DNA of 64,000 bases, from NCBI GenBank assembly GCA_963664705.1, contig OY761556.1, positions 960,001 to 1,024,000 of the forward strand, given 5' to 3'. Below, in pieces: positions 2,289 to 22,282 of this stretch (positions are counted from its first letter, which is position 1; every line of letters starts with the position of its first letter). This DNA is from Acidobacteriota bacterium (GTDB lineage Bacteria > Acidobacteriota > UBA6911). The notes under the pieces are model-generated. The model was not told where the DNA came from. It ran no database searches and saw only the letters and a list, made by a program, of their open reading frames with translations. The translations under genes and the position numbers were made by a program.

Positions 2289-2783
2289 ATGACCAAGATG
2301 CTACAGTCCCGTGAGGCGCCGCGCAGTGAGAAGCGTGGCGCAGTGGGTGGATCACATCAGTCTGAAAAATATGCATCCAACACCCGTTGTCCGAAGTGCA
2401 ATCTTCGATACCAGGATGGTATGTGGAAACGGGTCATTGCGGAGAACGGAGCGGATGTGCCATCAAAGCTGTGTCCCGCATGCATGCAGATACGGGATGG
2501 CCAAATAGGAGGTATTGTCGAGTTTACAGGCGCTTTTGCCGGGGTTCACCGCCAGGAATTATTGAATCGGATCAGGAATGTAGAGAAACTGACCCGGGAG
2601 GAACGGCCCCTGGAACGCATTGTTCAGGTGAAGGAGGAAAAGGGGGGAATCGTTGTCTCTGCTACAACAGAACACCTGGTTGCCAGAATAGGGAAATCGG
2701 TTCAACGAGACTTCGGCGGCGAACTGCATCTTCGGTATACCCCCGAGGATAAGTTTGCCTACGTGCATTGGCACAGAGATTAA
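2289..2783 (+). CDS. BCAM0308-like zinc-finger protein (CxxC...CPAC)
   Basis: CPKC...CPAC, RPLERI and TTEHLVARIG motifs; GGAGG RBS. Confidence 0.7.
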   Translation: MTKMLQSREAPRSEKRGAVGGSHQSEKYASNTRCPKCNLRYQDGMWKRVIAENGADVPSKLCPACMQIRDGQIGGIVEFTGAFAGVHRQELLNRIRNVEKLTREERPLERIVQVKEEKGGIVVSATTEHLVARIGKSVQRDFGGELHLRYTPEDKFAYVHWHRD

Positions 2784-2788
2784 CGGGC

Positions 2789-2824
2789 AGTGGGTAGTGG
2801 GCCGCGACAAGCCCATTACCCACT
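2789..2824. terminator. hairpin between convergent genes (probable bidirectional terminator)
   Basis: AGTGGGTAGTGGGC-N8-GCCCATTACCCACT: 14-bp stem with one G-U pair. Confidence 0.65.
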
Positions 2825-4217: not shown

Positions 4218-4293
4218 CGCCTCCTGAATTAAATTTGGATAGAGCCGCGCATCAATTCAAGAGGCATTCTCTGAGCGGGGGGAGGGAAGCGCT

Positions 4294-4551
4294 GTGACCG
4301 AGCCGGTGGAGCTGCCGATCGAGGATTCGATCGACCTGCATACGTTTCAGCCAAGAGAGATTCCGGATCTCATGGAAGAGTATCTGTTCCAGGCTGAACA
4401 AAAGGGTTTTAAGGAAGTCCGCATCATTCATGGCAGGGGCGTGGGAGTGCAGCGCAGCATCGTGCACTCCATTCTGAAGAAGCATCCGCGTGTCCTGGCT
4501 TTTCGAGATGCCCCGGACAAAGGCTCGACCACCGTCGTGTTGAGCCGCTGA
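4294..4551 (+). CDS. stand-alone Smr-domain protein
   Basis: IDLH...IIHGRGVG...GST Smr motifs. Confidence 0.85.
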   Translation: MTEPVELPIEDSIDLHTFQPREIPDLMEEYLFQAEQKGFKEVRIIHGRGVGVQRSIVHSILKKHPRVLAFRDAPDKGSTTVVLSR

Positions 4552-4581
4552 AAATAGGGAGCCGGCGGAATACGACGGGGC

Positions 4582-6654
4582 CTATTTCCCGTTCTCTGCA
4601 TTTTTCCCTGCGTTCTCCGCCGCGATGGCTTCAAAGAGCCTTCGGATTGAACCGGTGATAGCGGGGAGCATTTCAGCCTGAGGCTTGTCTGCGCGTGATA
4701 AAAGGTCTTTTGTTTCCTTGCGCCAGGCTTCGGACGGCTTTTGCCCATTTTGGATGAAATCCATGGCCTGCAGGCCTCTCTCACAGAGTTCGGCAATGGT
4801 ATCCGCCATGGGCCGGATTTCCTCAAGCAGGTATGACCGCCCGATCATGGTCTGAACCGCGGCATTGTTATCCTTCCAGTCCGCCAGCGAGGCTCGAACC
4901 CGGGCTGCGGCCGTTCCCGCTGGATCAGCGAGGAGATTCTGCACCTGCAGATCCAGTTGCCGGGCCGTTTCGCTTTCGGGGAAAACCAGGTCGACCATCC
5001 GGTTCATGGGGCTGAAGCTGGTGTATTTTCTTGTTCTCTGCCGCACGCCCAGACCGGTTGGAAGCAGCAGTTCCGTGAGTTTCCGGAGTGGCGCGATATC
5101 CTGATATCCTGCCAGGCGCTGCAGCATTTCGATCTGGTGGTCGGCGTGCCGGAGTCCCAGAAAACGGAGTTCCTGATTGAAGCGATCGAGTCGTCGATAC
5201 AGATCGGCGGCATCGGTGGGCACGGAAACGGACCATAGCCGCTCCGCAATCGCGCCCGCGCGCGGCCAGATGCGGGATTCTATATTGTCGGGATTGGCAA
5301 ACTCCGCCCACATGCAGGCTTCTCCGCCCAAAATCCGGCCGCGCTCCTCCGCGCTGAGTGAATCGGCGTCTTTGCCGAGCGGGTCCATTTCATAGTGGAA
5401 AGACGCGGGTCTCATGTGGTCCAGGTAATAGCTGTAGGAAAGAATGGCGGAGAATCCCCTGCGAACGGTGTCGCCGATAGTAGGCTGCTTGCGCCACACC
5501 TGCACCAGCACATTGGAGGGAAGATCGGGGTGCAGGATTTCATCCCAGCCCATCATTTTCTTGCCGTGCTTTGTCACTATCTTGAGCAGACGCTGGTTGA
5601 AATAAGCCTGCAGTTCGCGATTGTCTTTCAGCTGGTGCCGAGTCCTGAATGCACGGATCGTCGGGCTGGCGCTCCATTGTTTCTCGTTGACCTCGTCGCC
5701 GCCGATATGAAAGTACTCATCGGGGAAGAGCGCCGCCATTTCCCCGATAAGGGCATCGAGAAAGGAGTAGGTGCTTTCCAGTGCGGGGTTCAGGCACGGC
5801 TCAAAGACGCCCCAGGAGCGTTCGATCTGATAGGGGCCCGGCGCGCTTGCCAGTTCCGGATAGGCGACCAGCCACGATGTCGAGTGTCCGGGCATGTCGA
5901 ATTCCGGAATGACGCGAATGCCGCGGTCGCGCGCATAGGCCACGAGCCCTTTGACCTCTGCCTGTGTGTAGTAATGACCATCCGAGCCCATTTCATGGAG
6001 CTTGGGGAACTTAAGCGATTCCACGCGAAAGCCCTGATCATCGGACAGATGCCAATGCAGCACGTTCATCTTTGCCGCGGCCATGGCATCCAGGTTCCGA
6101 CGGATAACATCGAGCGGTTCCCAATGGCGTGAGGCATCGATGAGCAGGCCCCTCCAGCGCAGGCGTGGCCGGTCTTCAATGCTGGCCGCCGGGATAAAGA
6201 AAGACTGGCCATCCAGCTCAATGAGCTGGAGGAATGTTTCCATTCCTCGAAGGATCCCGATGGGTGAAGCTGCCGTGAGCCGGGCTGCCCGGTCGGTAAC
6301 TTCCAGTTGGTAGGATTCATCCGCCGTGAGGGACGGCAGCGCTTCGCCGGCTCCGCTGCACTGAATCTGAAGTGTTGCCGGATTGGAGTCCGTGTCCCCC
6401 TGTGGATGCAGCGGGATCCCGGTTCTATGCTGCAACCGATCGAGCAGACGGTCCGCGGCCCTTTTCAGAAGCGGATCGGAATATCCCGCAATTTTCACAT
6501 TGAAGCTGCCGTCGATAACCAGCCTGCCCGCGTTGAGAACCATATGTTCGGGCAGCGGGACCACATGAATATTGGTTTGTTGAGCCATAAGCAGTTGAGT
6601 TGAGAAGATCGCTGCAACCATGACAAGAACAACATAGGCTTTTTGTTGAATCAC
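4582..6654 (-). CDS. secreted beta-N-acetylhexosaminidase (GH20)
   Basis: Signal peptide; WRGLLIDASRH, HWHLSDDQ, PEFDMPGH, catalytic HIGGDEV and GGEACMWAE motifs. Confidence 0.93.
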   Translation of the reverse strand: MIQQKAYVVLVMVAAIFSTQLLMAQQTNIHVVPLPEHMVLNAGRLVIDGSFNVKIAGYSDPLLKRAADRLLDRLQHRTGIPLHPQGDTDSNPATLQIQCSGAGEALPSLTADESYQLEVTDRAARLTAASPIGILRGMETFLQLIELDGQSFFIPAASIEDRPRLRWRGLLIDASRHWEPLDVIRRNLDAMAAAKMNVLHWHLSDDQGFRVESLKFPKLHEMGSDGHYYTQAEVKGLVAYARDRGIRVIPEFDMPGHSTSWLVAYPELASAPGPYQIERSWGVFEPCLNPALESTYSFLDALIGEMAALFPDEYFHIGGDEVNEKQWSASPTIRAFRTRHQLKDNRELQAYFNQRLLKIVTKHGKKMMGWDEILHPDLPSNVLVQVWRKQPTIGDTVRRGFSAILSYSYYLDHMRPASFHYEMDPLGKDADSLSAEERGRILGGEACMWAEFANPDNIESRIWPRAGAIAERLWSVSVPTDAADLYRRLDRFNQELRFLGLRHADHQIEMLQRLAGYQDIAPLRKLTELLLPTGLGVRQRTRKYTSFSPMNRMVDLVFPESETARQLDLQVQNLLADPAGTAAARVRASLADWKDNNAAVQTMIGRSYLLEEIRPMADTIAELCERGLQAMDFIQNGQKPSEAWRKETKDLLSRADKPQAEMLPAITGSIRRLFEAIAAENAGKNAENGK

Positions 6655-8027: not shown

Positions 8028-9062
8028 TTATAGCCGGACGGTATCCTTCCCCTTCTGATTTCCCCTTGAAATCCGGCTGCCCAGCAGATTCAGGCAGAGC
8101 AGCGTTACAAACACCATACCCAGCGGCAGCAGGTTCCACCAGAAATCCGTCAGCACGCGTGCGTCCTTCAGATTCTTCAGCATGGATCCCCAGGATTCTC
8201 CCGCATCATGAAACCCGATGTTTAGGAAAGAGAGGACAACCTCACCCAACAGGAATATGGGAGCGGCCACGACAAGCTGCGAGAGGATAAAGGGGAGAAG
8301 ACCGGGAAACATGTGCCGGCGGAAAATGTGCCATGGAGAAGCGCCAAGCGAATGGGCCGCTTCCACGAAGACGGAATTTCTGAGCTGCAGGATGAGACCG
8401 CGAATGCCGCGCGCCATGGGTGGCCATGCCACGGCGGCAATTGTCCCGACTATCAGAAGCAGGTTTTGCATGAAGGGCATTTTGGCGGGCAGAAAGGCGC
8501 GCAGGGAAAGCACGATGTAGAGGGCCGGCAGCGCCAGCACAAATTCCGAGAAGCGCATCAGGAGTGAATCGATCCAACCGCCGAAAAGCCCGGCCAGTGC
8601 TCCGATGGAAATGCCCAGCGCGGAGTAGAGCAGCAGCCCGAGCAGCATGACGAGAAGCGAAGTCCTGGTTCCCGCCAATACCCGTGCCAGAACGTCGCGC
8701 CCGAAATCATCGGTGCCGGCCGGATAGTAATAGGGCGGCTGGCTTCTTCCCAGGAGATGGCAATTCATGGGAATCAAACCCAGGAGCCGGTAGGAGTATC
8801 CGGAGTAGAAGAACTGCAGAGGATAGGTCTGCTCCGTGTTTTCCTTGTAGCGCGTATCGAGCGGATCCTTCAATTCCATCCGATAGACAAACGGTACCGT
8901 CAGTGCGGTTTGATTGAAGAAGTGCATCCGGTTGGGAGGCTGGAAAAACTGTTCCAGGTTTTGCATCCCCGGCGGATTGGAGGAGAGGAAGTCGGAAAAG
9001 ATGGAAACCAGCACCAGCAGAAGCACGAATCCCGCGGAGAGCCTGAAAGTCAGCGATTTCAT
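8028..9062 (-). CDS. dppC: peptide ABC transporter permease, DppC/OppC type
   Basis: GTDDFGRDVLAR and FVEAAHSLGAS (EAA loop). Start MKSLTF at 9062 overlaps the upstream stop (ATGA). Confidence 0.85.
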   Translation of the reverse strand: MKSLTFRLSAGFVLLLVLVSIFSDFLSSNPPGMQNLEQFFQPPNRMHFFNQTALTVPFVYRMELKDPLDTRYKENTEQTYPLQFFYSGYSYRLLGLIPMNCHLLGRSQPPYYYPAGTDDFGRDVLARVLAGTRTSLLVMLLGLLLYSALGISIGALAGLFGGWIDSLLMRFSEFVLALPALYIVLSLRAFLPAKMPFMQNLLLIVGTIAAVAWPPMARGIRGLILQLRNSVFVEAAHSLGASPWHIFRRHMFPGLLPFILSQLVVAAPIFLLGEVVLSFLNIGFHDAGESWGSMLKNLKDARVLTDFWWNLLPLGMVFVTLLCLNLLGSRISRGNQKGKDTVRL

Positions 9063-10054
9063 CGTATGCCTTTCCGCATCGCGGGACGCGTTCTGGGATC
9101 CAGCGCCAGCATCGCCGTGTCCGCCAGCAGATTTCCCAGGACAAGGAGAAGACTGCTTCCCAGGACGCATCCGGCCAGCAGGAACAGATCGCGGTTGAAG
9201 AGCGCGTCATAGGTGATCTGTCCGAGTCCGGGCCACGAGAAGATGACTTCCAGGACGAGGCTTCCGCTGAGGATTCCCCCGAGCATCGGCCCTGTGATTG
9301 AGAGCACGGGGTTGAGCCCCGGGCGCAGCATGTAATTCAGAAAAATCCGCGAATTTCCCAGGCCTCTGGCTCGTGCGCAGCGCAGGTACAATAAATTGTC
9401 GTGGCTCTGCATGGCGGCGTATTGAATCCGTTCTATATAGGCGAGAACGGGAATGGTCAGGCAGAGCACCGGCAAACACAGGTGGTGGAGCCGATCGATT
9501 GTCCAGTGCAGGATGCCGATCGGCTGATCGGCCAGCGAGTTCATGCCCCCCAGCGGGAACCAGTGCGTGTGCGCGGCAAAGAGTAGCGCCGACAGTCCCA
9601 GTAGAAGGGAAGGGAGTGAAAGTGCGATCGTGGAAAACAGGCTCAGCAGTTTTCCCGGCGCGCGTCTCTCAAACAGGGCGTGAATGGTGCCGGCAAAAAG
9701 CCCGCCGCCGAAGCCGAGAATCAAAGCCGGAATCCCCATCCAGAGAGTGTTGGCCAGGGCGCCGGTGACTACGGAGAAAACGGGGCGCTGGTAGAAGAGG
9801 GATTGTCCCAGGTCCAGGCGCAGAAGCCTGCCGAACCAGCGCGCAAACTGAATGTAGAACGGCGCGTCCAGTCCATATTTATGCCGGAGCTGGCTTACCG
9901 CTTCCTTCTGGATCGATGCATCGACCAGGTGCGTGCTGAAGAAGTCCCCGGGAATAACTGCGGAGAGCCAGAAGGTAAGGAAGGCAACGGCAAAGGAAAG
10001 CAGCAGGAACTGAGCGATTCGTTTCAATAGGAAGGATGAAGTCCCGGTCCGCAT
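9059..10054 (-). CDS. dppB: peptide ABC transporter permease, DppB/OppB type
   Basis: YGLDAP, DLGQS, ARARGL, EVIFSWPGLG and LDPR motifs. Confidence 0.88.
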   Translation of the reverse strand: MRTGTSSFLLKRIAQFLLLSFAVAFLTFWLSAVIPGDFFSTHLVDASIQKEAVSQLRHKYGLDAPFYIQFARWFGRLLRLDLGQSLFYQRPVFSVVTGALANTLWMGIPALILGFGGGLFAGTIHALFERRAPGKLLSLFSTIALSLPSLLLGLSALLFAAHTHWFPLGGMNSLADQPIGILHWTIDRLHHLCLPVLCLTIPVLAYIERIQYAAMQSHDNLLYLRCARARGLGNSRIFLNYMLRPGLNPVLSITGPMLGGILSGSLVLEVIFSWPGLGQITYDALFNRDLFLLAGCVLGSSLLLVLGNLLADTAMLALDPRTRPAMRKGIR

Positions 10055-10323
10055 CTGTTTTTGCCAATGGCGGCATCTGTTCTGTCCGGGATGCCGGCAC
10101 GCTCCGATTTTTCGTAATTTGCCCGAATTGAAACTCCCATTGTACTAGAAAGCCGTGATTTTCTATAATGGGCTGCCCTTGAATCAACCCCTCGCTTGCA
10201 TCTGTAGTTCCCTCGGAGTGAGGGCGCCCTTTTGAATTTAGACGCGCGATAGCCGTTGGTCTGTGTAACTTCTAAAAATTAGTGTCTTTGCAGTGGCCTG
10301 CCACCATTTGTCAGGGAGCGTCT

Positions 10324-13300
10324 ATGAAGGCAATGACCAAGCACCTCAAGGATGGCTTCAAACTGAATGATCGCTACCAAATTGAAGAAATGCTGGGGAT
10401 TCAGGACATAGGACAGCTTTATCGCTGCAGCGATCGCGCCACGGGGCGGGGTCGGGCGAGATTGCGGATTCTTTTCGGCGAGTCGCTTGGAGTAGCGGAT
10501 ACAGCGGCTATGAGCGGAGCCTTATCGCTGCTTCGCAGATTGCAGCACCCGAATCTGGGGCGCGTCTTGGATTATGGAATCATTAAGGGGTCTCAAGATC
10601 TGTTTGTCGTTCAGGAATGGGTGGATGGCAAGGATATATGGGTTGGAACCGAGGATGTGGAATTTGAAGAGCTGTTGAGTATTTTGATCGATGTCGTTCA
10701 GTCTGTGCATTACTTGCATACACGCGGACTGGTTCACGGCTGTTTGAATTCCTCGAATATCATCCTGGCCAAGAATGGGAAGGGCACGAGGCCAAAGCTG
10801 TTGGATTTCGGCCTGGTGCGAAGCCTTCCGCAGCATGGAGGCAGCAGACTAGGGAATCCCGTGCACTTGGCTCCAGAGCTTTTGTTGGGTGGAGCCGTCA
10901 CCCAAAGCTCCGATCTGTATTCTCTGGGAATCCTGATTTATCAGTTGTTGACGCGCCGGCTTCCTTTCGAAGATGTTGACCCCGGTTTTCTGGTGGAAAA
11001 GCGCCTGCAGGTAAACATCGATCTGAGGCCGATAGGGCGTCTTAAGAATGGCGCCGTATTGAAGGAGATGTTGTGCAATCTGCTGGAAAGAGATGCGGAT
11101 AAACGATCCGGATCCAGTGAGGGCGTCTTACGGGGGTTGATAGAAGTACTTGGACGCGATACATCACGCCGGAATGCCAGGGATTTGCGAAACCTGTTCT
11201 CCTCATCGCGATTCGTCGGCAGGGACAACGAGCAGAGTCTTCTCAAGAAGTGCGCTAGCCAGGTGGAGGTGAACGGGCGAGGGTGGACCGTGTTTGTATC
11301 CGGAGAAGGAGGTTTGGGGAAGAGCAGGCTTTTGGAGGAATTTTCAAGCTGGGCCCGTTTGGAAGGCTGGCGGGTAATTGAAGGAGCCTGCGATACGCGC
11401 CACCAGGAGCCTTACGGGCCCTACCGGCAGATTCTGGCTCAGACGGAATCCATGAGTGGAGAATCCATATTCCGTTTTGAGAATACGTCACGGTCACAGG
11501 AAATGAGATCCTTTGAACCATCTCCTGAGTTTGCTGCCGGCCAGTTCCGGGATCTTCTGACCCGGGAGCTTGTCCGACGGTTGAGCGTGTGCCCAACCTT
11601 GCTTTTACTGCATGACTTTCATTTATCTGATGAGGCTACCAGTACTGTTCTGGACTATCTGAGTTCGGACATTCAGACGCACCCGATATTGATGTGCGTG
11701 AGTCTGAGATCCTGCGAGGACGCAGGTGGAGGAATTAACCGCGCCATAGAGCAGGCTCTGAGGCAGCAGCGGGGCGAGGTTTTGAACCTTGAGCCTCTGG
11801 TTGAAGGTAGTGTAGGTGAGCTTGTGGCCGGGATTACAGGCGATGCCAGGCTTAAAGGTACCCTGGGATCGTGGATGTATAACAATATAGGAGGAAACCC
11901 ATTCTTTATTGAGGAGATGTTGAAGCATCTGGTGGAGCAGGGATTGCTGCGTTGTGAATTGGATCGATTCCGGTTCAGGAATAGGGATTTGCAGAGATTG
12001 GAAGTGCCTGAAACGATTGGAGCGGTACTGCAGCGTCGACTTGTGCACCTGTCTTCAGCAGCGGGAAATCTGGCAAACTGGCTCGCCTTATTTCACCGGC
12101 CGATTACCAAAAGCCTCCTGACATCGATTTTGGAGTGGGAGGATGCGGAGGTAGCCAAAGCTTTGCAGGAGCTGAGGGAACGGCAGTTGGTGCGGATTGA
12201 AATGGGCGATGCGTTTGAAGTTATTGAGTTAGGCCACGTTCTCTTTGCAGAAGTCATTCGAGGGAATTTGCCGAAGGCTAAGCGCTTGAGGATGCATAGA
12301 AAGATAGCCGAGGTTCTGGAGCGGGAATATGGATGCGAAGGGAATCTCCAGGAATTGGCAATGCATGCAATGGAAGGGCGGACGGGGGTCAAGTCTGTCC
12401 GATATGCGCTGACATTGGCGACTCAGTCCCATGCTGAATTTGCCCACGAAAAAGCACTGCAATGCTATGAATATGTGTTTCGTCATCGAGGCGACCTGAC
12501 GGAGGCCGACCTTTGCCAAGCCGCCATCGAAGCCAGCGATACAATGTTTGCACTGGGAATTCCGACCCAAGCTATCAGGCTTTTGAAAAGAGAGATGAAT
12601 TGGTGCGGCAATATCGATCAGGAATTAAGGGCGGGATTGTTGATGCAATTCGCGGTTGCATATAAGCACTTAGGAGATTTGATTCGAAAGGATACATTTT
12701 GTAAAAAGGGGCTTCATTACCTTCGCCATTCACGTTTTGATAAGAATCCAACAAAAGCATTGCTATGGGCCGAACTGGCTTTCAACGCTATGCTACGATC
12801 TAATCCAAAACTTGGACTAAGGTTGTTAAAAAAAGCCCAATCTGCCTGTCCTGAATCCAATTCAGGGATTCTGGCTGGCAGGATACAAAACCTCGCGGCA
12901 TCTCTTCATCGAGTGGCATGCAACTTCCAAAAGGCTCTCATTGCAGGCGAGAAAGCGGTTAGTATTTTTACCAAGTGTGATAGTTCCTTTCTAGTTTGCT
13001 CCGCCTATTCAACTTTGGGCTTGGTTTTAATGGGCCTAGGAAGATTTTCACTTGCCCTAAGAATGCATCAAGATGCTGTCACGGAAAGCGAAAAGAATCG
13101 CTCGGTCGCGCTAAGGGCTCAAGCATCTGCCAATCTACTAGAGTGTTTGTGCAAAATGGGGCGAATGACAGAAGCTGCGGAGTTGGCCGAAAATGCCAGC
13201 GAATATATTTATGGGCTACAGAATCCATCCATAAGAGATGCTTTTATTGTCATCATGGCCGAAATTAAGCTAAACCTTTGCGATTACAGTGGAGCGCTTG

Positions 13301-15693
13301 ATCTGATCAGGCAGTTGGATGAAAAGAGAATTGGGCGTTCAGCCGTGTATATTTCGGGCCATGCTCATTATGTCGCTGCCAGTGCTTTTTTCTATTTGGG
13401 AGATTTTGATTCAGCGATTCATCACATTGAAACAATTTTTTCTGTTCAACGGGCAGAAGCTCCTTTTTATGAGAGAGAGTTGGCCGCTGCGCTGCAGGCC
13501 CGCATTATGTCCGAACGAGGCCTCGCTGATCGTGCAATCAAGCAATTGCGCTCACTTGACAAAACGGTTACCCGAAAAAAGTGGCCTTATCAGATGTGCA
13601 TCATAAAGCTTCACCTAGCTGAAATAATGCTTCGAAAACAGCTCTATGATACTGCCAAAAAATTAGCAAAGAATGCGTTGCGATTGGCAAAGGGTATGCA
13701 TTCCGAATCCCTAATTGGGCAAAGTTACCTTTTGCTTGGGAGTGCATACTCCAGACTTTTTCACTCTAATGATAAGGACAGATTGTATCTTGGTTATGCG
13801 ATAGAGAACCTGCAATTTGTATGCAACTCAAGCGCCTCCGTTTCCAATGAAACTGTTTGGCGAGCCTGTGCAGAATTGAGTTTGATATATGAAGAGTTGG
13901 CAAATTCGAGAAAAAGCGTCGATTATGCGGAAAAAGCGCATAATTGTTTATCTAAAATCGAAAGACGATTGTCGCAGAGGATGCAGGATTCTTATATAAA
14001 CGCATTCGGACGAAATTACCTGAAATCCGAAGTGCTTCGACTTGCTGATCGGCGTGGAAGCTGTCAAACACAAGATAATTCGGGGCCTGGGCTAATTGCG
14101 AGTATCGAGGGTAGAATACTGTTGCGAGTCAGCGCGGCAGTAAACTCAATTCCGGACATAAACCGACTTTTGGAACGAATATTGGATCAGTTGATCCAGG
14201 CTGCAGGACTGGAGCGGGCTTTTGCTTTTCTTGCTGACAGCTCAAACCGAGATCTTTGTTTGGCCAAAGGCAGAAATCACCTAAGAGAGACTATTCAGAA
14301 CGCGGGAGCAACAATCGACACCATTGTTGAGGAGGTGTTTGAACGAGGTCTGCCTATGGTTAGCTCTAATGCACAAATCGATCCGAGATTTAAGGACAAG
14401 GTAAACATGTTGGGGCATCAAGGCGTACTCCTTTGTGCTCCACTAAGAGTAGCCGACAGGATCCTTGGTGTTCTTTATGCAGATCATTCATTGCCAGAGG
14501 AAAACCTTAGCGAGTCAGTGTTTAACCTTTTTGCCGCCTTTTGCAATCTTGCTGGGATAGCTATTGATAACACAATTGTGCATCAGCAATTGGCTCGGGA
14601 AAAGTCGGAGTTGGAAGAGTATTTTCATCTCGCTCGTGGTGAATACCCCGAAATTGTTGGAAAAAGTGCCGTGGTGGAGTCATTGCGTGATCGAATAGGT
14701 ATGGCAGCCCAATCGCCGCTTGATATTTTGGTTATTGGAGAAAGTGGTACGGGGAAGGAACTTGTTGCCAAAGCCATTCATAGCTCAGGAAATAGAAAAA
14801 ATGGGAAATTTATAGCAGTCGATTGTGGCTCGCTTTCTGACACGCTAGCAGAGGCAGAGTTATTTGGCTATCGCAAAGGGGCGTTTACAGGGGCGTTCGA
14901 AAATCGGCCAGGGCTACTTGAGGCAGCTAACGGCGGGATCTTATTTCTGGATGAAATATCGAACATGCCGTTGAAAACACAACCAAAATTATTGCGCGTT
15001 CTTCAGGAAAGGGAAGTTAGGAGAATTGGTGAAACCATAACAAGAAAAGTGGATTTTCAGGTAGTGTCGGCAACCAACAGAGATATTCTACTGGATGTAC
15101 GAGAGGGGAAATTTCGAGAGGATCTATATCATCGTCTGAGAGGAATGGAAATACGCGTGCCCCCATTAAGGGATCGTTTGGGCGACATCCAACTGTTGGT
15201 TGACTGGCATTTGTCGGATATTAACCGAGCAACTAGCAAGAAAAGGAAGTTTTCACAAGAGGCGAGGGAGATCTTATCTAGATATCACTATCCCGGAAAT
15301 ATACGCGAACTCAAGAACGTTGTTGCTGATGCCTATTATTCAGCAAAGGGCGGGCAGATAAGCGTTGGCGATTTGCCAGTCGAGGTCAGGGGAATGCTTT
15401 CGGAAGAGTTCAGTGCCGACAATGGCATTGCTTCGCGGTTATATATTCAAATTGCTGAAGGACGCGGAACCTTTGAAGAATTGGTAAAGAAGCCGTTCAT
15501 TGATCGCCAGTTAAGCCCACCAATACTTCGAAGCATTATTGAGAGGGCGTTGAGGGAGTCAGCGGGGAGCTACAGAAAGGCATTTTCGATTTTAAAAATC
15601 CCCGGGCGGCAGTATTCGCTGACTATCAGATTTTTAAAGCATTATAAGTGCTATTTAAACTACCAGCAGTTCAGACAGCGCGAATATGATTAG
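10324..15693 (+). CDS. giant sigma54 enhancer-binding protein: Ser/Thr pseudokinase - P-loop ATPase - TPR-like helical region - GAF - sigma54 AAA+ - C-terminal helical/HTH region
   Basis: Kinase fold (HPNL, DFG, APE, SDLYSLG); FVGR/GEGGLGKS/GGNPFF ATPase; long helical repeats; GAF (LCAPL...GVLYAD); GESGTGKE, GAFTGA, FLDEI and YPGNIREL. Start at ATG 10324 after GGAG. Confidence 0.9.
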   Translation: MKAMTKHLKDGFKLNDRYQIEEMLGIQDIGQLYRCSDRATGRGRARLRILFGESLGVADTAAMSGALSLLRRLQHPNLGRVLDYGIIKGSQDLFVVQEWVDGKDIWVGTEDVEFEELLSILIDVVQSVHYLHTRGLVHGCLNSSNIILAKNGKGTRPKLLDFGLVRSLPQHGGSRLGNPVHLAPELLLGGAVTQSSDLYSLGILIYQLLTRRLPFEDVDPGFLVEKRLQVNIDLRPIGRLKNGAVLKEMLCNLLERDADKRSGSSEGVLRGLIEVLGRDTSRRNARDLRNLFSSSRFVGRDNEQSLLKKCASQVEVNGRGWTVFVSGEGGLGKSRLLEEFSSWARLEGWRVIEGACDTRHQEPYGPYRQILAQTESMSGESIFRFENTSRSQEMRSFEPSPEFAAGQFRDLLTRELVRRLSVCPTLLLLHDFHLSDEATSTVLDYLSSDIQTHPILMCVSLRSCEDAGGGINRAIEQALRQQRGEVLNLEPLVEGSVGELVAGITGDARLKGTLGSWMYNNIGGNPFFIEEMLKHLVEQGLLRCELDRFRFRNRDLQRLEVPETIGAVLQRRLVHLSSAAGNLANWLALFHRPITKSLLTSILEWEDAEVAKALQELRERQLVRIEMGDAFEVIELGHVLFAEVIRGNLPKAKRLRMHRKIAEVLEREYGCEGNLQELAMHAMEGRTGVKSVRYALTLATQSHAEFAHEKALQCYEYVFRHRGDLTEADLCQAAIEASDTMFALGIPTQAIRLLKREMNWCGNIDQELRAGLLMQFAVAYKHLGDLIRKDTFCKKGLHYLRHSRFDKNPTKALLWAELAFNAMLRSNPKLGLRLLKKAQSACPESNSGILAGRIQNLAASLHRVACNFQKALIAGEKAVSIFTKCDSSFLVCSAYSTLGLVLMGLGRFSLALRMHQDAVTESEKNRSVALRAQASANLLECLCKMGRMTEAAELAENASEYIYGLQNPSIRDAFIVIMAEIKLNLCDYSGALDLIRQLDEKRIGRSAVYISGHAHYVAASAFFYLGDFDSAIHHIETIFSVQRAEAPFYERELAAALQARIMSERGLADRAIKQLRSLDKTVTRKKWPYQMCIIKLHLAEIMLRKQLYDTAKKLAKNALRLAKGMHSESLIGQSYLLLGSAYSRLFHSNDKDRLYLGYAIENLQFVCNSSASVSNETVWRACAELSLIYEELANSRKSVDYAEKAHNCLSKIERRLSQRMQDSYINAFGRNYLKSEVLRLADRRGSCQTQDNSGPGLIASIEGRILLRVSAAVNSIPDINRLLERILDQLIQAAGLERAFAFLADSSNRDLCLAKGRNHLRETIQNAGATIDTIVEEVFERGLPMVSSNAQIDPRFKDKVNMLGHQGVLLCAPLRVADRILGVLYADHSLPEENLSESVFNLFAAFCNLAGIAIDNTIVHQQLAREKSELEEYFHLARGEYPEIVGKSAVVESLRDRIGMAAQSPLDILVIGESGTGKELVAKAIHSSGNRKNGKFIAVDCGSLSDTLAEAELFGYRKGAFTGAFENRPGLLEAANGGILFLDEISNMPLKTQPKLLRVLQEREVRRIGETITRKVDFQVVSATNRDILLDVREGKFREDLYHRLRGMEIRVPPLRDRLGDIQLLVDWHLSDINRATSKKRKFSQEAREILSRYHYPGNIRELKNVVADAYYSAKGGQISVGDLPVEVRGMLSEEFSADNGIASRLYIQIAEGRGTFEELVKKPFIDRQLSPPILRSIIERALRESAGSYRKAFSILKIPGRQYSLTIRFLKHYKCYLNYQQFRQREYD

Positions 15694-15704: not shown

Positions 15705-18095
15705 CTATGCGCGATAAAAATCGATAACGTTTGTATCCAATGTGAATTTTTGAAGAATGCCCGATCGAAGGTTTTCCTGTGCAGAATGCAAAAGTGATAA
15801 AATTGTAGCTCCATCTTTGGGGTAGAATGAAATTCCTATTTGGCAGTCAATAGAAAAACCCTGTCCAATCGTCGGGCGGTTGCCTCTTATCTGCTGTTTC
15901 AATCGTTGAGCGCAACGTAATGCCTGGTCATCCCTGACGCCTGGGAGAAAGACAACAAATCCCTGAGCCCCATAGCAAACAAGAATGTCACTTTCTCGCA
16001 GTTCAGGCTTAATGCTATCCGCAATTTTTTTGAAAACTGAATCAGCCAAATTAGAACCAAAATTCCGTACAATCTGGGGAAGATTTCTGATCTCAATATA
16101 TATTAGCGAAATTGGTGTTCTGTTTTCAGCGGCTGCAGATATCAGTTGCGGGCCGACTGCGGCTAAATATGAGATTCTGCAAAGGCCGGTGACTGGATCA
16201 ATAGTATCACTAGAGGTTTTACTATCCTCGTTGGCTGCATCTGCGAAAAGAGGCGCAATAACATTTGCCACGGTTTGCAGGACTGCAAGGTGGTTCTCAG
16301 TGTAGGAGATTGGATCTTGTCCGTAGAGTGAGAGCGTTCCAAGGCATTCGTCTTCTTTGGTTATGGGCACGACAAGTGTATCGCTAAATGAGAACTGTGA
16401 TTCCCCTGGCGTTCCCTGGAAATCGAGCGCCGGCCCCGTGTTGATCATTGGGCGCTTATGTGCCGCCACCCACCCGCTGATTCCCTTTCCAACCTCCATT
16501 TCTCTGTTTTGAAGTGATTCTGAGAACATTCCGCTAACATATGTAGCCGAAATTTTGTTTTCGGAATTGCATATGAAGAAGGCGCAGGTGGAATATGGGA
16601 CCAAAGCTTTCAGTCGCTGCGCCAGGATGGAAAGAACATCGTTTAGGCGCAAGTGCCCGGAGATTGTACTGCAAAGCTCCGTTAATTGAATTAGCTCGGC
16701 TGGTATGTCCAAACTTGACTTGGCGGTTTTGGTGGCGATATCTGGCTCACTTGTTTCCGAATACTTTCGGAATGACAACTGCGGTGCATTCTCGGATTCC
16801 TTTAGTGCCGCTTGTTCCAGTTCATCAATGTGTTTTGTGAAAATGTCGACAAGGTGTGGATCATAGACCGTCCCCGCCTGATTGCGCAAAATCTCAGCCG
16901 CTTCATCTTTGCCAATAGGCAGTTTATAGGGACGAGAGAACCGGATTGCATCAAAAGCGTCAGAAATTGCAAGAATCCTTGCCCCCAAGGGAATATCCTC
17001 ACCCTTTAGGCCATCCGGATATCCTAGTCCATCCCAGCGCTCATGATGTGAACGAACATATTTTGCCACAGGATATGGGAATCTTACTTGTTGAAGAATC
17101 TCATCTCCCGCAATGGAATGAACCTTGATCTTTTCAAATTCTTTTTTTGAAAGCCGTCCAGGTTTGTTTAGGATATAGTCGTCAATAGCAATCTTTCCTA
17201 TGTCATGAAGCAGCGATCCGGTTTCAATTGCTCGTAACTCATCTGGCTCCCTAATTCCACAAAGTTTAGCCAACCCCATCGCATAAATCTTTACTCGACG
17301 AATATGGCCATAGGTTGTTTGATCTTTTGCATCAACGGCAAGTGCTAATGATTCAACCGTGCGCAGGTACAATTGCTCTTGTTCTTTTAGATGGTCCTGC
17401 GCCTCTGCAACCCTGCTTTTATTGATCTGGTTCCATCCCCAAACAATGCCTATGATTGGTATCGCGGCGAATGCAGCCCAAGAGCCTAGCCATTGGTATA
17501 AAACAGCCATCACTGCAGCACACATTCCTGAAAGAGAGTAATCCATAGAGAGTGGGACACAAGTTTTGGCCCAAAATCTAAAGACACTTTCATCTGATGA
17601 CCATGCGATGGCAGTTGATGTGGAAATCGAGTTAAACAGGAAGAAGCTAAGAGTTAGAAGTGCGGCGGGAACAACAATATCAATTGGTTTGGCGCTGAAT
17701 TGGTGAATGCTTTGATAGATTGAACTGTAGATCCAAGCCCCACACGTGGTGCTTGCAACGTTAAATGCAACCCTATGGGCGTAGACTTTGGGCTTCTGTG
17801 AGACAATCGAGATAATGAGAATGTATACAAAAGTGCCAATAACACATGGTGCGGTTCCATATATCATGGCTATTGCCATGATATATGAATCACCTACTGT
17901 AATTGCAGCTTTGAAATGAGGCAGGTGCAGAAAACAAAAGATGGTAACAAGGGCAACCGCAAGGAGAATCAGCCATCGACTATCATATCCTCCTTTTGAG
18001 AGCTTAATGCCGGCCCAGAGCAATATAGGTATGGCTGAACAAACCAATAGACCTATATATAGCCTTAACTTTGATGGAAGATCTGCCCATGCCAT
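15705..18095 (-). CDS. multi-TM membrane sensor - HD-GYP phosphodiesterase - GAF - degenerate GGDEF
   Basis: About 220-aa hydrophobic N-terminus; intact DAKD, HDIGK and HHERWDGLGYPDGL; GAF (GKGISGWVA); GGDEF replaced by GAQGF. Confidence 0.9.
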   Translation of the reverse strand: MAWADLPSKLRLYIGLLVCSAIPILLWAGIKLSKGGYDSRWLILLAVALVTIFCFLHLPHFKAAITVGDSYIMAIAMIYGTAPCVIGTFVYILIISIVSQKPKVYAHRVAFNVASTTCGAWIYSSIYQSIHQFSAKPIDIVVPAALLTLSFFLFNSISTSTAIAWSSDESVFRFWAKTCVPLSMDYSLSGMCAAVMAVLYQWLGSWAAFAAIPIIGIVWGWNQINKSRVAEAQDHLKEQEQLYLRTVESLALAVDAKDQTTYGHIRRVKIYAMGLAKLCGIREPDELRAIETGSLLHDIGKIAIDDYILNKPGRLSKKEFEKIKVHSIAGDEILQQVRFPYPVAKYVRSHHERWDGLGYPDGLKGEDIPLGARILAISDAFDAIRFSRPYKLPIGKDEAAEILRNQAGTVYDPHLVDIFTKHIDELEQAALKESENAPQLSFRKYSETSEPDIATKTAKSSLDIPAELIQLTELCSTISGHLRLNDVLSILAQRLKALVPYSTCAFFICNSENKISATYVSGMFSESLQNREMEVGKGISGWVAAHKRPMINTGPALDFQGTPGESQFSFSDTLVVPITKEDECLGTLSLYGQDPISYTENHLAVLQTVANVIAPLFADAANEDSKTSSDTIDPVTGLCRISYLAAVGPQLISAAAENRTPISLIYIEIRNLPQIVRNFGSNLADSVFKKIADSIKPELRESDILVCYGAQGFVVFLPGVRDDQALRCAQRLKQQIRGNRPTIGQGFSIDCQIGISFYPKDGATILSLLHSAQENLRSGILQKFTLDTNVIDFYRA

Positions 18096-18161: not shown

Positions 18162-18192
18162 CCTGCAATTAGGGTTAAAACCTAATTGCAGG
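18162..18192 (-). terminator. perfect 12-bp hairpin between the peptide ORF and the HD-GYP gene
   Basis: CCTGCAATTAGG-GTTAAAA-CCTAATTGCAGG; a T6 run follows shortly downstream on the minus strand. Confidence 0.7.
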
Positions 18193-18235
18193 CCATTTAA
18201 TCAAATTCATCTAGTTTGCTGCTAGAATGAGAATA

Positions 18236-18298
18236 CTAGCCAACCCAAATAATCATAGGGGTTTCACGGGATTCGAGAATTTCGATATCGGTCTGCAT
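18236..18298 (-). CDS. putative 20-aa precursor peptide MQTDIEILESRETPMIIWVG
   Basis: GGAG RBS 5 nt before ATG; ends at TAG; acidic leader ending in LExxExP, then a hydrophobic Trp-containing hexapeptide; followed by hairpins; lies between an RRE-M50-HlyD gene and a membrane sensor. Below the ORF-track size cutoff. Confidence 0.75.
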   Translation of the reverse strand: MQTDIEILESRETPMIIWVG

Positions 18299-18341
18299 TT
18301 TATCTCCAAATATCTGAATGGGTTGTGTTTAAAAAAACAAC

Positions 18342-18356
18342 ACAATACTCTTGCCG
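18342..18356 (-). promoter_or_regulatory. possible sigma54 (-24/-12) promoter for the peptide ORF
   Basis: CGGCAAGAGTATTGT: correct GG-N10 spacing, but TTGT instead of TTGC; about 43 nt upstream of the ATG. Confidence 0.35.
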
Positions 18357-18359
18357 CTG

Positions 18360-18407
18360 TCACAGCCAGAGAATTGCACTCGCCATAGCAGTCTCCTCTT
18401 TAATCAT
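18360..18407 (-). CDS. possible second micro-peptide MIKEETAMASAILWL (or MASAILWL from 18386)
   Basis: AAGAGGAG lies 6 nt before ATG 18386, and there is an in-frame ATG at 18407. The C-terminal AILWL resembles MIIWV of the neighbouring peptide. Confidence 0.4.
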   Translation of the reverse strand: MIKEETAMASAILWL

Positions 18408-18869: not shown

Positions 18870-21242
18870 CTAGGGCAGATATTCCCAGAACTCTGTCCGG
18901 AGCCATCGGATCGCCCGCCGGGAGGCGATCTCGTAAATGCTTCTCTTGCCGCAGCGTATCTTTCCGACTCCTGTCATCCCCGCGCGCAAACTGCCGTCCG
19001 GGTTTGGCAACTCCCCCTGAACCGTCACGGTCTTCTGGTTGCCGCCCGAGGTCGCAACCGGGGCAATGCTTCGCACATGCGCTTCATACCAGCGGCGGGG
19101 ATACCCGCGCACTTTTATCGTAATGGGATAGCCCAAATGGATGTCCCCAATTTCCTTCTCCGGAACCGGCATCTCGACAATCATGGTCGAATTGCTGACG
19201 ATTTCGCAGAAGACATTCCCCTTGTCGAGGAAATCGCCGATCCTGTTGTGCAGATACGAAGTCGCCACCGTCCCGTCAATGGGACTCCGGATCTTCATCA
19301 ATTCTACCTGGCGGTCCAGGATCCGGAGCTTCTCTTCAAGCTTGTCCACCTGCGATTCCACCGCCCGGATCGATTCCTTCCGTGCGCCCGCCAGCAGTAT
19401 CTTCAGTTCGCTATGCGCCTGCGCCAGTTCTTTCTTTTTGACGTCCCTGTTCCGCTCGATCTGCTCTTCGAGAACGCTTAATTGCCCTTTGGCCGCCGAA
19501 ACTTCCTTTTGCTGCACTTCATAGGCGGTCCGGTCTCTGTCTACTTCATTCCGCGGGATCAGCTGCGCCTTCAGCAGGTTCTGCGCCCGCTCATAATTCA
19601 ACCTGGCATTGGCAAGCTCCGCTTCTTTTTTGGCCATGGTGTCCCGAAGCACCGCCCGTTCCTGGTCAACCTTGCCGATGCTGGCCAGTTCCGCATTTTT
19701 GGTTTCGATCAGACTTCTGGCTTTCTCGATTTCCTCGGGCCGCGTTCCTGCATTCAACAAATCCAGCGAGGCCTTTTGCGCCTGCAGCTCGCCTTTGACA
19801 TCCTCATAGCTGTTCGACAGCTCGAGGTTTTCGATTTCCGCGAGTACATCACCCGCGCGCACCTGGCTCCCCTGTTCGACATAGATCTTCTTGAGATTGC
19901 CCAGAACTTCCGGCGTTACCGACACTCTCCTGGAGGCGAGCATCGTAAAATCGCCGGATACCTTCATTTCCCAGGGCAGAAAGCCGGCCAGCAGGACCAG
20001 GAGGAGCAGAACCAGGATCAGAGGATTTTTTCGAAAACGTACAATCACCGCTTTGGTCACCTTCCCGGAAGCAGCTACATTATCCCTGCTCGCGACTGGA
20101 ACCGTCATAAAAAAAAGCGCCGAGATCAAAACCACGCCCCACGACTGATATTCTTCCACAAACCAGGCGCCCAGCCTCTGAAACATCACCCAGATGATCA
20201 GCAGCGTAAACAGAGAAGACGCGCTTCCGTAAATAAAAAACAACCGCTTCTCTCTGCGGCTCAGCATCTGTTCAGCGGAAGAACGACTCCCGGTCAGCAG
20301 CGAAAGGAGCCGGTTTTTCACATAGGCAAGGGCCTTCGGTCGCAGGTTCGGCACTTCGATGAGATCGCTCAGGAAATAGTAGCCGTCCAAACGGATCAAT
20401 GGATTGAAGTTGAGAATGGTCTGAATCGCGTTGAATGCTATCGCGATCAGGCATATCCGGCTTGCAAGCGTTTCCGTCGCCAGGAGTCTCCAGCCAATCG
20501 TTGCGATGGCCCAGAGAATGACCTGCGCATAGGCGCCGGCAAGTGTGATCCGGATCCGTTCTCTCTTTTTCAGCAGCCAGGCATCACTGACATTGCAGTA
20601 GAAAGCCGGAATAAAATAGAGGATCAGGAACCCCATCTCGGTTACCTTGCCTCCAAAATGCTTGAGGGCAAGGCCGTGGGCAAACTCATGAATGGTCATG
20701 ATCGCAAAGATGACAACCAATGCCGTCGGGATGGAGGAAATGGTAAAAATGGCTCCCATCGAGAGAAACAGGGACTCGCTGTTTAGTATCGAAATGATGG
20801 CGGATACGAGCGCTGCGATCCACACCAGCGCTGAAAAGGCGGGGGCAAAGCAGAAGCGCAGCCTGCGCTCCAACCGGGTGAGAAGCTGGTCCGGGTTAAA
20901 GGCGTGGATTTTGATCGACAGCAGACTTCGGATGATCGTTCGTTTTCTTGCGGCCGCGCCGCTCAGCTTATTCCAGCAGTATGGGTGATCCAGGAGCAGC
21001 AGCGCCTGCAGTTTTCCCAGGAATTCCCGCAACTGCTCTTCCGTGACAGGCGTCTGGTGCTTCTCGGTGACCTGGGCCGCGATGGCAGGCAGATCATTCT
21101 GCCCGTTCAAAAGATCAAGAACGGAAGCCTGCACCGGCGTGAATCGATAAAAGCGCAGAGTAACCGGATCTTTTACAACGACACCGGCATTCTGTTCCGA
21201 ACGAATGTCCAGATCCGATCGCAGCTTCGCATGATTCGCCAT
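18870..21242 (-). CDS. PqqD/RRE-like domain - M50 (site-2) intramembrane metalloprotease - HlyD-type membrane fusion protein
   Basis: N-terminal winged-helix-like segment (VVKDPVTLRFYRF...LLNG...EFLGKLQALLLL); HEFAH zinc motif; NFNPLIRLDGYY; then lipoyl-like VEQGSQVRAGDVL, a coiled coil, IRSPIDG and LRAGMTG. Confidence 0.9.
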   Translation of the reverse strand: MANHAKLRSDLDIRSEQNAGVVVKDPVTLRFYRFTPVQASVLDLLNGQNDLPAIAAQVTEKHQTPVTEEQLREFLGKLQALLLLDHPYCWNKLSGAAARKRTIIRSLLSIKIHAFNPDQLLTRLERRLRFCFAPAFSALVWIAALVSAIISILNSESLFLSMGAIFTISSIPTALVVIFAIMTIHEFAHGLALKHFGGKVTEMGFLILYFIPAFYCNVSDAWLLKKRERIRITLAGAYAQVILWAIATIGWRLLATETLASRICLIAIAFNAIQTILNFNPLIRLDGYYFLSDLIEVPNLRPKALAYVKNRLLSLLTGSRSSAEQMLSRREKRLFFIYGSASSLFTLLIIWVMFQRLGAWFVEEYQSWGVVLISALFFMTVPVASRDNVAASGKVTKAVIVRFRKNPLILVLLLLVLLAGFLPWEMKVSGDFTMLASRRVSVTPEVLGNLKKIYVEQGSQVRAGDVLAEIENLELSNSYEDVKGELQAQKASLDLLNAGTRPEEIEKARSLIETKNAELASIGKVDQERAVLRDTMAKKEAELANARLNYERAQNLLKAQLIPRNEVDRDRTAYEVQQKEVSAAKGQLSVLEEQIERNRDVKKKELAQAHSELKILLAGARKESIRAVESQVDKLEEKLRILDRQVELMKIRSPIDGTVATSYLHNRIGDFLDKGNVFCEIVSNSTMIVEMPVPEKEIGDIHLGYPITIKVRGYPRRWYEAHVRSIAPVATSGGNQKTVTVQGELPNPDGSLRAGMTGVGKIRCGKRSIYEIASRRAIRWLRTEFWEYLP

Positions 21243-21439: not shown

Positions 21440-22282
21440 ATGCTATTCAAAAAAGGTATCTTGGTTTTCATGGTGCTGGCCGTGGCTGTTGCGTTGTGCG
21501 GTTGTGGAAAAAAGTCTGAAGAGTCGCAGGGAGAAACCGCCGCGCCCGCAAAAGCTGTGGTAAACCCGGGGGAAATGGTTTTGATTCCTGCCGGCGAATT
21601 CATAATGGGCAGCAATATCAAGGGTAGCGACGGCAAAGAAACCCTTGCCTTTCCGGAACACAAAATGAATTTGCCCGCCTACTGGATTGATAAATATGAA
21701 GTAACAAACTTCCAGATGCTCGATTTCGCCATTAAAGAAAAATATACCGGCGAAGGCGCCAAAGAGGGAAAAGACTGGAGACTCTTTGCTACTCCGGACA
21801 AAGCGCTGGTCCCCGTTCAATATGTCACCTTCAACGATGCCCAAGCGTACTGCAAGTCCGTAGGGAAGAGACTTCCTACGGAAGCCGAGTGGGAAAAAGC
21901 CGCGCGCGGTGCGGATGGGAAAGCCTATCCCTGGGGGAATGAATGGGTAGACGGCCGCAGCAATACCGCCGAAACCGGACTTCTGAAGCCCGCTAATGTG
22001 GGCGAGTACGACGACGTGAGCCAGTATGGTGCCCACGATATGCTGGGCAATGTGCGGGAATGGACTTCGACCCCGTTTGAACTCTATGCCGGAAATACCG
22101 CCAAAAACCCGGGCAAAGGACGCTTTGTTGTCCGCGGCCTGTCCCCGAACCACAAGGGCAAAATGGCTCACCTGTGGGATCGCGACGGATATCCCGCCGC
22201 ATTTCTTGGCGATGTAGGCTTCCGTTGCGCCAAGGATGCAACTCCGGAAGATGCCGCCAAGGCTGCCGCACCGGCCAAGTAA
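21440..22282 (+). CDS. FGE-sulfatase (SUMF1)-domain lipoprotein
   Basis: Lipobox LCGC; IPAGEFIMG, YEVTN, RLPTEAEWEKAARG, DMLGNVREW and GFRCA motifs. Confidence 0.88.
   Translation: MLFKKGILVFMVLAVAVALCGCGKKSEESQGETAAPAKAVVNPGEMVLIPAGEFIMGSNIKGSDGKETLAFPEHKMNLPAYWIDKYEVTNFQMLDFAIKEKYTGEGAKEGKDWRLFATPDKALVPVQYVTFNDAQAYCKSVGKRLPTEAEWEKAARGADGKAYPWGNEWVDGRSNTAETGLLKPANVGEYDDVSQYGAHDMLGNVREWTSTPFELYAGNTAKNPGKGRFVVRGLSPNHKGKMAHLWDRDGYPAAFLGDVGFRCAKDATPEDAAKAAAPAK

Follow-up and report, generated by a model that had tools for sequence, protein, structure and literature searches.

A candidate peptide-signaling cassette in Acidobacteriota joins an RRE-M50-HlyD fusion, short W-motif peptides, and a MASE9-HD-GYP protein

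Introduction

Peptide pheromones are a hallmark of the one-membrane Bacillota. In RRNPP systems, precursors with a Sec signal give rise to short, hydrophobic, strain-variable peptides that are taken up through an oligopeptide importer and sensed inside the cell. The RRNPP-type quorum-sensing systems of Bacillota include Rap/Phr, NprR, PlcR/PapR, and Rgg/SHP (PMC4147580). Other described systems bear on single parts of the locus reported here. The daptide leader carries the motif ELExMEAP, with its Pro numbered -1 (accessible text of 10.1101/2023.03.08.531785). The M50 protease EpeP/YydH is believed to cleave an antimicrobial peptide and to carry out its export (accessible text of PMC10885120), and for M50-HlyD loci that lack an ABC transporter a role as secretion systems has been proposed (accessible text of PMC4452313). 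For the MASE9 membrane domain, the accessible text of the MASE9 paper (10.1101/2021.11.05.467447) predicts that ligands bind within the membrane, without naming any.

In this study, a 64,000-nucleotide stretch of Acidobacteriota DNA (the window) was analyzed, in which a small precursor gene lies between genes for an RRE-M50-HlyD fusion and a MASE9-HD-GYP protein. A description of this cassette was not found in the freely accessible literature searched.

Results

The precursor open reading frame (ORF) lies on the minus strand at 18236 to 18298, with its ATG at 18298, 20 codons (MQTDIEILESRETPMIIWVG), and a TAG at 18238 to 18236. A GGAG ribosome-binding site (18304 to 18307, minus strand) precedes the ATG by 5 nt. 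Just past the stop codon, on the same strand, is a small bulged hairpin (approximately 18207 to 18230), followed by a perfect 12-bp hairpin with a 7-nt loop and without a U-tract (18162 to 18192). All of these elements had been named in a preliminary description of the locus, and all were found, on the minus strand. A strong hairpin occupies the position of the 12-bp hairpin in 9/32 loci, with unrelated, nonconserved sequence; the hairpin is likely an RNA-stabilizing or attenuating element.

The gap that holds the precursor measures 774 nt and separates two genes of the same strand, encoding proteins of 790 aa (21242 to 18870) and 796 aa (18095 to 15705); a gene encoding 1803 aa converges on the latter from the other side. 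GC content was 45% in the sensor gene (796 aa), 44% in the gap, and 48% in the activator gene (1803 aa), compared with 55% in the protease gene (790 aa) and 53% in the window. A gene for a lipoprotein of the FGE-sulfatase fold (21440 to 22282, plus strand) diverges from the protease gene and is syntenic in 29/32 family loci; its product may be a mere neighbor or a periplasmic partner. A 53-aa plus-strand ORF over the precursor (18227 to 18388) was rejected as an antisense shadow lacking support of its own. Upstream of the peptide genes, no conserved sigma-54 promoter linking them to the activator was found (0/31 loci at a threshold of at least 10 of 12 consensus positions), and the search for a sigma-70-like promoter gave a single weak site, at chance level. 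Contigs of two DNA runs had no letters differing from the window stretch.

The precursor is almost certainly a real coding gene. The 6.9-Mb genome contains 1398 GGAG-led ORFs of 15 to 30 codons, and since the precursor is the only one to carry L[ED]x[RM]ExP, it is not a chance ORF. By the RRE-M50-HlyD gene alone, 32 family loci were fetched out of 35 genomes, three being omitted where that gene is cut by a contig end. The precursor was present in 28/32 of these loci; three of the others end 228 to 723 nt past the RRE-M50-HlyD gene, and the fourth (G031) carries the precursor on a separate contig, upstream of its MASE9 gene. Each locus has one to four copies, in tandem, with up to four identical, and five contigs are broken inside the precursor, the expected effect of tandem repeats. 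Both the frame and the leader motif, whose absence from relatives the preliminary description had held to be decisive against the gene, proved to be conserved across the family.

Changes among the copies are mostly synonymous. Over 35 precursor copies, the major-allele frequency at codon positions 1 to 3 was 0.94, 0.94, and 0.68. Comparison of 33 loci showed that 73% of the codon differences involving a single base were synonymous in the precursor frame, with 0 stops, versus 6 to 20% in four of the other frames and 65% in the mirror antisense frame, a test that is partly circular because these loci were picked by the precursor motif. GGAG lies 5 to 10 nt before the ATG in 31/33. A degenerate leader pattern, searched over one genome per species, returned 103 stretches, 32 of which were short precursors, 31 in Acidobacteria records and one (L197) in a deltaproteobacterium record. 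The other 71 matches were not short ORFs; among the 21 inspected, one (L200) was a genuine precursor truncated where its contig ends. Another locus, L128, matched the precursor regular expression, was found to be a long frame, and was dropped, leaving a merged set of 38 loci with 56 complete precursors and 31 different cores. NCBIfam models gave only low-complexity matches to 11 precursor peptides, and none fits.

Decayed or frameshifted copies lie beside intact ones, including a 39-aa read-through (L023:5227-5346), a Trp-less copy (L179), and a start-less copy (L007), which fits a turnover within the precursor array, with copies being gained and lost. In G031 (L079:560-4117), a mobile-element-like 3.6-kb insertion with three minus-strand genes separates the precursor from the MASE9 gene. 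At L007 (G024), the HD-GYP gene is directly followed by what we take to be a reverse-transcriptase-like ORF, again resembling a mobile-element insertion.

The precursor divides into a 14-residue leader (MQTDIEILESRETP, 18298 to 18257, minus strand) and a predicted C-terminal core, MIIWVG (18256 to 18239, minus strand). This split into an acidic leader and a hydrophobic core had been proposed from the window alone and is borne out by the relatives, in which the leader is near-invariant and the cores vary. The cores follow the pattern x-[IV]-hydrophobic-W-x, extended by 0 to 4 residues; they are mostly 5 to 7 and overall 5 to 9 residues long, within precursors of 19 to 23 residues. Pro occurs four residues before the Trp in 53/55 precursors, and the Trp is followed by Tyr (18), Thr (17), Ala (7), Gly (5), or another residue (8 of 55); the window peptide ends in Gly.

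A likeness to daptide leaders, also suggested in the preliminary description, held on alignment: L(-7), E(-6), E(-3), and P(-1) of the window leader are in register with ELExMEAP, while across the precursor leaders Met(-4) is replaced by an invariant Arg and Ala(-2) by Thr/Asn. Related leaders (LEERIAP, LEQRIAP, EEVVAP) were found in small genes at 7/24 more distant RRE-M50 loci, where the cores are unrelated and either Gly/Ser/Asn-rich or Trp-free. Thus, the leader goes with the protease and the W-core goes with the MASE9 cassette. The distant small genes (L035:2033-2263, L036:8545-8667, L080:4948-5199, L081:5533-6170, L091:10171-10275, L092:6626-6907, and L095:302-403) are unannotated, lie beside RRE-M50-HlyD genes, carry Gly/Ser/Asn/His-rich or short hydrophobic cores, and fit no NCBIfam model; they probably represent additional classes of substrate for this machine.

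Alignment of the upstream DNA of relatives exposed a second peptide gene, overlooked in the preliminary description: a leaderless micro-ORF of 8 codons, MASAILWL (18360 to 18386, minus strand), with its own GAGGAG 6 nt upstream. This peptide, or a 10-codon form ending in [AG]ILW[LF], was present in 35/38 loci, and two of the misses were at contig edges. The micro-ORF varies at third codon positions and uses stop codons of all three kinds (13/12/10 across relatives), and its peptide is far less variable than the precursor cores. A conserved motif, TGGC...ATTCT.TGG.T, had first been taken for a promoter and turned out to be the 8-codon ORF itself. A further candidate, MKVSATAILWL at G000:C1:246855 in the window genome (G000), was rejected as a chance match, being off-frame within a 458-aa gene that is presumably a member of a cell-wall operon.

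The gene adjoining the gap at 18870 to 21242 (minus strand) encodes the 790-aa RRE-M50-HlyD fusion, with a PqqD-like RRE at residues 1 to 80 and an M50 protease with H185-E186-x-x-H189 and N278/P281/D286. The partner that the preliminary description had called for, an RRE with a membrane protease, therefore adjoins the precursor in the form of an RRE joined to a membrane M50 protease. The fusion was matched in 35/36 genomes of the same family versus 1/24 others in the class, and HlyD is joined to the protease throughout the family. HExxH and N278/P281/D286 (N-x-x-P...D) were invariant in 21 fusion sequences. The NCBIfam daptide protease model (NF041824, daptide_HExxH) scored 220.8 bits, below its cut-off of 300, and the PqqD model matched the N-terminus at an E-value of 5e-4, also below cut-off. 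Residues 12 to 80 were modeled as three strands and three helices, which aligned with TbiB1/PqqD at TM scores of 0.63 to 0.79 over the target, all Foldseek E-values being above 0.001. The best structural match of the membrane part was the site-2 protease 3b4r (Foldseek E-value above 0.001), and a search for a solved-structure sequence relative of the RRE-M50 region gave none (best E-value, 0.34). The cassette contains no TolC or ABC ATPase gene; many TolC-family genes lie elsewhere in the genome. The fusion is predicted to be both the leader peptidase and the exporter, and the precursor is very probably its substrate.

Outside the family, 10/19 RRE-M50-HlyD genes face a convergent sigma-54 activator (L082, L083, L085-L089, L094, L096, L097), several of them with a GAF-type gene upstream. 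Short Lys/Arg-rich repeat peptides are present in the gap at L085, L086, L087, L089, L094, and L097.

On the other side of the gap, the candidate receptor is a MASE9-HD-GYP-GAF-degenerate GGDEF protein of 796 aa (15705 to 18095, minus strand), a predicted c-di-GMP phosphodiesterase with the domain order MASE9-HD-GYP-GAF-GGDEF and eight membrane segments, two of them short. The MASE9 assignment (PF20972) was marginal, at 27.5 bits in the genome search and 23.9 bits in a whole-protein hmmscan against a cut-off of 24.3. The HD-GYP motifs are intact (HDIGK and HHERWDGLGYP), and by these residues the domain is predicted to break down c-di-GMP. An intact motif was matched in 26/38 loci, most of the others ending before the gene. 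The GGDEF site is degenerate, reading YGAQGF in the window, and is likewise degenerate in all 18 loci where it was located.

A predicted model of the MASE9 domain (pLDDT 87) was compared with the pdb and pdb_via libraries. The top 21 structural alignments were all to ECF S-components (Z 10 to 15; next fold, 8.6), including 4m5b (Z 15.3, rmsd 3.3, 184 aligned) and RibU 5kbw (Z 12.8, rmsd 3.6, 157 aligned), values to be read with the caution that Z below about 13 can arise among helical bundles and that the Foldseek matches of the model all had E-values above 0.001. A six-helix core of the model superimposes on S-components of the RibU/ThiT/FolT/NikM-CbiM type. As modeled, the MASE9 sensor thus adopts the fold of an ECF S-component. 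The RibU alignment spans model residues 33 to 206 and equates MASE9 helices 2 to 7 with the six-helix core; helix 8 leads to the cytoplasmic HD-GYP. Basic residues occur at the N-terminus, in loop 99-106 (mean 3.4 K+R), and in loop 167-175, and from these positions and the helix mapping the loops of the S-component pocket would face the cytoplasm. A cytoplasm-facing MASE9 pocket is therefore predicted by the model, with the caveat that toppling within the membrane is a known behavior of S-components.

The preliminary description had placed S8 proteases with C-terminal x-I/V-W-G repeats next to similar HD-GYP genes in Acidobacteria, and S8 proteases with [IV][ILV]W[GS] repeats were indeed seen to adjoin MASE9 sensors, both in the window genome and across the phylum. 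Three S8 proteases of the window genome carry GD[AG][IV]LW repeats at their ends, and an oppA gene (G000:C1:6890987-6892735) lies upstream of a pair of them and of a MASE9-like histidine kinase. This arrangement runs across the contig origin (G000:C1:6890987-end and 1-5450; L038, L037), with oppA before an Hpt gene, the S8 pair, and the histidine kinase; the tails of the pair are GDGVLW/GDAILW, and oppBC remain in the window. The separation of oppA from oppBC is a rearrangement (or an assembly join) that brings both putative ligand routes together within a single genome. Among the S8 tails, one contains SAILW, five residues also present in MASAILWL. The third S8 protease with GDGVLW repeats is at G000:C1:4642708-4644666 (L039:2709-4667, minus strand), and a MASE9 gene was not found beside it.

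A MASE9 profile search gave matches in 84/301 phylum genomes. Out of 39 out-of-family regions around the best matches, 24 contained an S8 gene, 23 of these with W-repeat tails, and none contained an RRE-M50 gene; the 46 family cassette regions contained no S8 gene. W micro-ORFs precede 15/20 S8-linked MASE9-HD-GYP genes versus 0/10 others, and their motif mirrors the local S8 tail (IIWG[ED] with WG tails, [HY]WTD with WTD tails). Thus, across these regions, RRE-M50-HlyD with its precursor occupies the slot held by S8 elsewhere. That the same motif forms a separate pentapeptide behind a leader argues for its functioning as a free peptide, at least in this cassette. G261 (L063, L066, L067) contains several near-identical S8-S8-MASE9 blocks; parts of MASE9 are duplicated there in tandem, and the tails read SDSILW/SDGVFW.

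Core similarity follows MASE9 similarity beyond the kinship controls. The partial correlation (r) of core similarity with MASE9 identity was 0.37 controlling for HD (n = 23), 0.47 for GAF-GGDEF (n = 19), and 0.33 for RRE-M50 (n = 20), versus 0.03 to 0.06 for the reverse partials of core with HD, GAF-GGDEF, and RRE-M50; the P values were given no weight, being overstated for related genomes with few independent events. Single cases illustrate the pattern. L004 and L005 are sisters in the protease tree, with different cores and with MASE9 domains in different clades, and the MASE9 of L004 (SVLWM) groups with those of L023 and L156 (SVLWM, SVLWL) with a support of 99. L139 and L143, also sisters by protease, have different cores and sensors on opposite sides of the deepest MASE9 split.

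The convergent gene (10282 to 15693, plus strand) encodes a Ser/Thr-kinase-like/AAA/TPR/GAF/sigma-54 activator of 1803 aa, a conserved neighbor and a rival receptor. Its second TPR stretch and MASE9 follow the core equally closely (r = 0.41 each, n = 10, inseparable), whereas the activator's TPR1, AAA, and GAF-AAA regions show no such tracking when MASE9 is controlled for. Divergent from the activator gene is a gene for an OppB-like peptide ABC permease (9059 to 10054, minus strand), next to one for an OppC-like permease (8028 to 9170, minus strand); the matching gene for the OppA-type binding protein is the split-off oppA described above. The full oppABC is adjacent to and divergent from the activator gene in 6/14 relatives' loci. 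OppA was found in 12/14 genomes with 5- to 6-residue cores versus 1/11 with longer cores, a difference reflecting about three independent events. Within the family it was found in 16/36 genomes and not found in 20/36, most of which retain the cassette; re-import by this Opp importer therefore cannot be essential. OppA of the same family also flanks 10/39 out-of-family MASE9 loci.

Discussion

The data support a signaling role for the W-core in this cassette as the likely one. In the proposed mechanism, the acidic leader of the precursor would be bound by the RRE of the neighboring RRE-M50-HlyD protein, and the M50 domain would cut after Pro14, a site placed by the daptide register. The core would leave the cell through the HlyD portion and a TolC whose gene lies outside the cassette, might return through the linked Opp-type importer, and would bind MASE9 from inside, altering c-di-GMP breakdown by HD-GYP. 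The 8-mer, made in the cytoplasm, could reach the same MASE9 pocket without export, where this nearly invariant, self-made peptide would serve as an agonist or competitor and so set the threshold for the strain-specific, variable signal. In other lineages, S8 proteases with W-repeat tails would make the same ligand class by the other route. MASE9 is slightly favored as the main receptor, and the whole chain, from leader-guided cleavage after Pro through export, re-import, and MASE9 binding to a change in c-di-GMP, is considered narrowly probable. Against this mechanism count the equal tracking of the core by the activator's second TPR stretch, the many family genomes in which OppA was not found, the lack of a TolC or ABC ATPase gene in the cassette, and the failure to find a conserved sigma-54 promoter (0/31 loci) that would link the activator to the peptides. 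A broader reading is offered only tentatively: MASE9 may use an inverted ECF S-component as a peptide receptor, read from the cytoplasm, giving Acidobacteriota a peptide quorum sensing wired to c-di-GMP, with three interchangeable routes to a hydrophobic-hydrophobic-Trp ligand, namely, one-protein cut-and-export by RRE-M50-HlyD, tail shedding by S8, and leaderless 8- to 10-codon genes inside the producer.

Alternatively, the same peptide could be exported and re-imported and bind the TPR region of the activator as in RRNPP, with MASE9-HD-GYP as an output or second input. The activator is a near-constant neighbor with TPRs and is divergent from oppABC where the operon is complete, and its TPR2 region tracks the core, but its other regions do not once MASE9 is controlled. 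Moreover, the G031 precursor stays on the MASE9 contig, with the activator not found within 19 kb, and W-repeat S8 genes adjoin MASE9 sensors of other outputs, including the histidine kinase in the window genome. On balance, this alternative is unlikely, though it retains some weight.

The peptide could also act in cis, with the M50 domain freeing the core into the inner membrane or cytoplasm, to a MASE9 protein of the same cell that would report the state of the protease or the envelope. Such a short path would suit a pocket predicted to face inward, an 8-mer without an export signal, and the many family genomes in which OppA was not found, yet it leaves HlyD fused to the protease throughout the family, cores that differ between strains like pherotypes, an importer accompanying short cores, and S8 counterparts with signal-peptide-like N-termini, and is thus rather improbable.

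Less probable again is an antimicrobial or surfactant RiPP of the daptide or epipeptide kind, bearing little or no modification, with which the MASE9 protein would co-evolve as a self-sensor. Cores of mostly 5 to 7 residues, the modifying enzymes and immunity transporter not found near the locus, and the recurrence of the motif in leaderless 8-mers and S8 tails beside the same sensor argue against this explanation, despite the daptide-type leader and protease, the tandem precursor copies, and the dual role attributed to EpeP in the accessible text of PMC10885120. Finally, it is highly improbable that the small ORFs are functionless peptides serving translational control of the HD-GYP gene, as upstream ORFs or tryptophan-sensing attenuator leaders, because, although both have a Trp codon directly upstream of that gene and a hairpin follows in 9/32 loci, each has one Trp codon only, up to four identical copies lie in tandem, the leader accompanies the RRE protease at loci with Trp-free cores too, most loci lack the hairpin, and a 3.6-kb insertion parts precursor from sensor in G031.

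If the favored mechanism holds, a strain-variable peptide circuit coupled to c-di-GMP in a two-membrane soil and sediment phylum would widen the picture of bacterial pheromones. The orphan MASE9 sensor family would gain its first candidate ligand, a 6- or 8-mer obtainable synthetically, and natural cognate and noncognate core-sensor pairs provide controls for peptide tests on the purified enzyme. The data also suggest that RRE-M50-HlyD fusions work as cut-and-export machines guided by leaders of a general LE-x-R-x-x-P form, so that substrates are predicted for many homologues that lack annotation. In addition, they show that 8-codon genes under purifying selection escape annotation.

Among described systems, the sensor is comparable to MASE9-HD-GYP(-GAF-GGDEF) phosphodiesterases (PF20972), which in the accessible text of 10.1101/2021.11.05.467447 have the same architecture and eight helical membrane segments, two of them short; the window gene differs in being tied to W-motif peptide genes, a candidate ligand source, and the modeled S-component fold is added here. 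The producer shares with the type-I-secretion-like M50/HlyD/GAF/SecA_DEAD loci (accessible text of PMC4452313) an M50 with HlyD and a proposed secretion without an ABC transporter, but lacks SecA_DEAD and a separate GAF-HlyD gene and has a 19- to 23-residue precursor and a sensor link. With EpeP/YydH (accessible text of PMC10885120), it shares a putative dual role of the M50 protease in peptide cleavage and peptide export.

The cassette also resembles daptides, in which MpaA precursors are paired with the RRE-fused site-2 protease MpaP (accessible text of 10.1101/2023.03.08.531785 and PMC12670281). Both combine several short precursor genes with an intramembrane site-2 protease that carries an N-terminal RRE, and their peptides have a hydrophobic core and a Pro(-1) leader with L(-7), E(-6), and E(-3). 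However, daptides as described there have an invariant C-terminal Thr and the DapB/C/D/M enzymes, whereas the cores here are 5 to 9 residues long with an invariant Trp, the leader has Arg for Met(-4), none of those enzymes is present, and the protease has a C-terminal HlyD adaptor, a subthreshold daptide_HExxH score (220.8 versus 300), a link to a c-di-GMP sensor, and a diderm host. Among 23 neighboring ORFs (2823 to 36120), no aminotransferase, Fe-ADH, or second RRE was found; the methyltransferase near the cassette is RlmI-like, an SDR lies 6 kb beyond housekeeping genes, and relatives have only small ORFs between the protease and HD-GYP genes. Lacking both the invariant Thr and the modifying enzymes, the cassette is not a daptide pathway.

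With RRNPP systems, the cassette shares a small precursor gene beside the gene of a presumed receptor, a short, hydrophobic, strain-variable peptide, a linked oligopeptide importer, and sensing from inside the cell, which here is predicted. It differs in its RRE-guided leader, HlyD-type export, extra leaderless 8-mer, and two-membrane host, and its candidate receptors are a membrane domain of S-component fold with c-di-GMP output or a sigma-54 activator of about 1800 aa; no RRNPP-family model appeared in the best 25 of 41 NCBIfam matches or among the 17 Pfam matches listed for the neighbors. The cassette thus resembles RRNPP signaling combined with daptide-type processing, yet belongs to neither.
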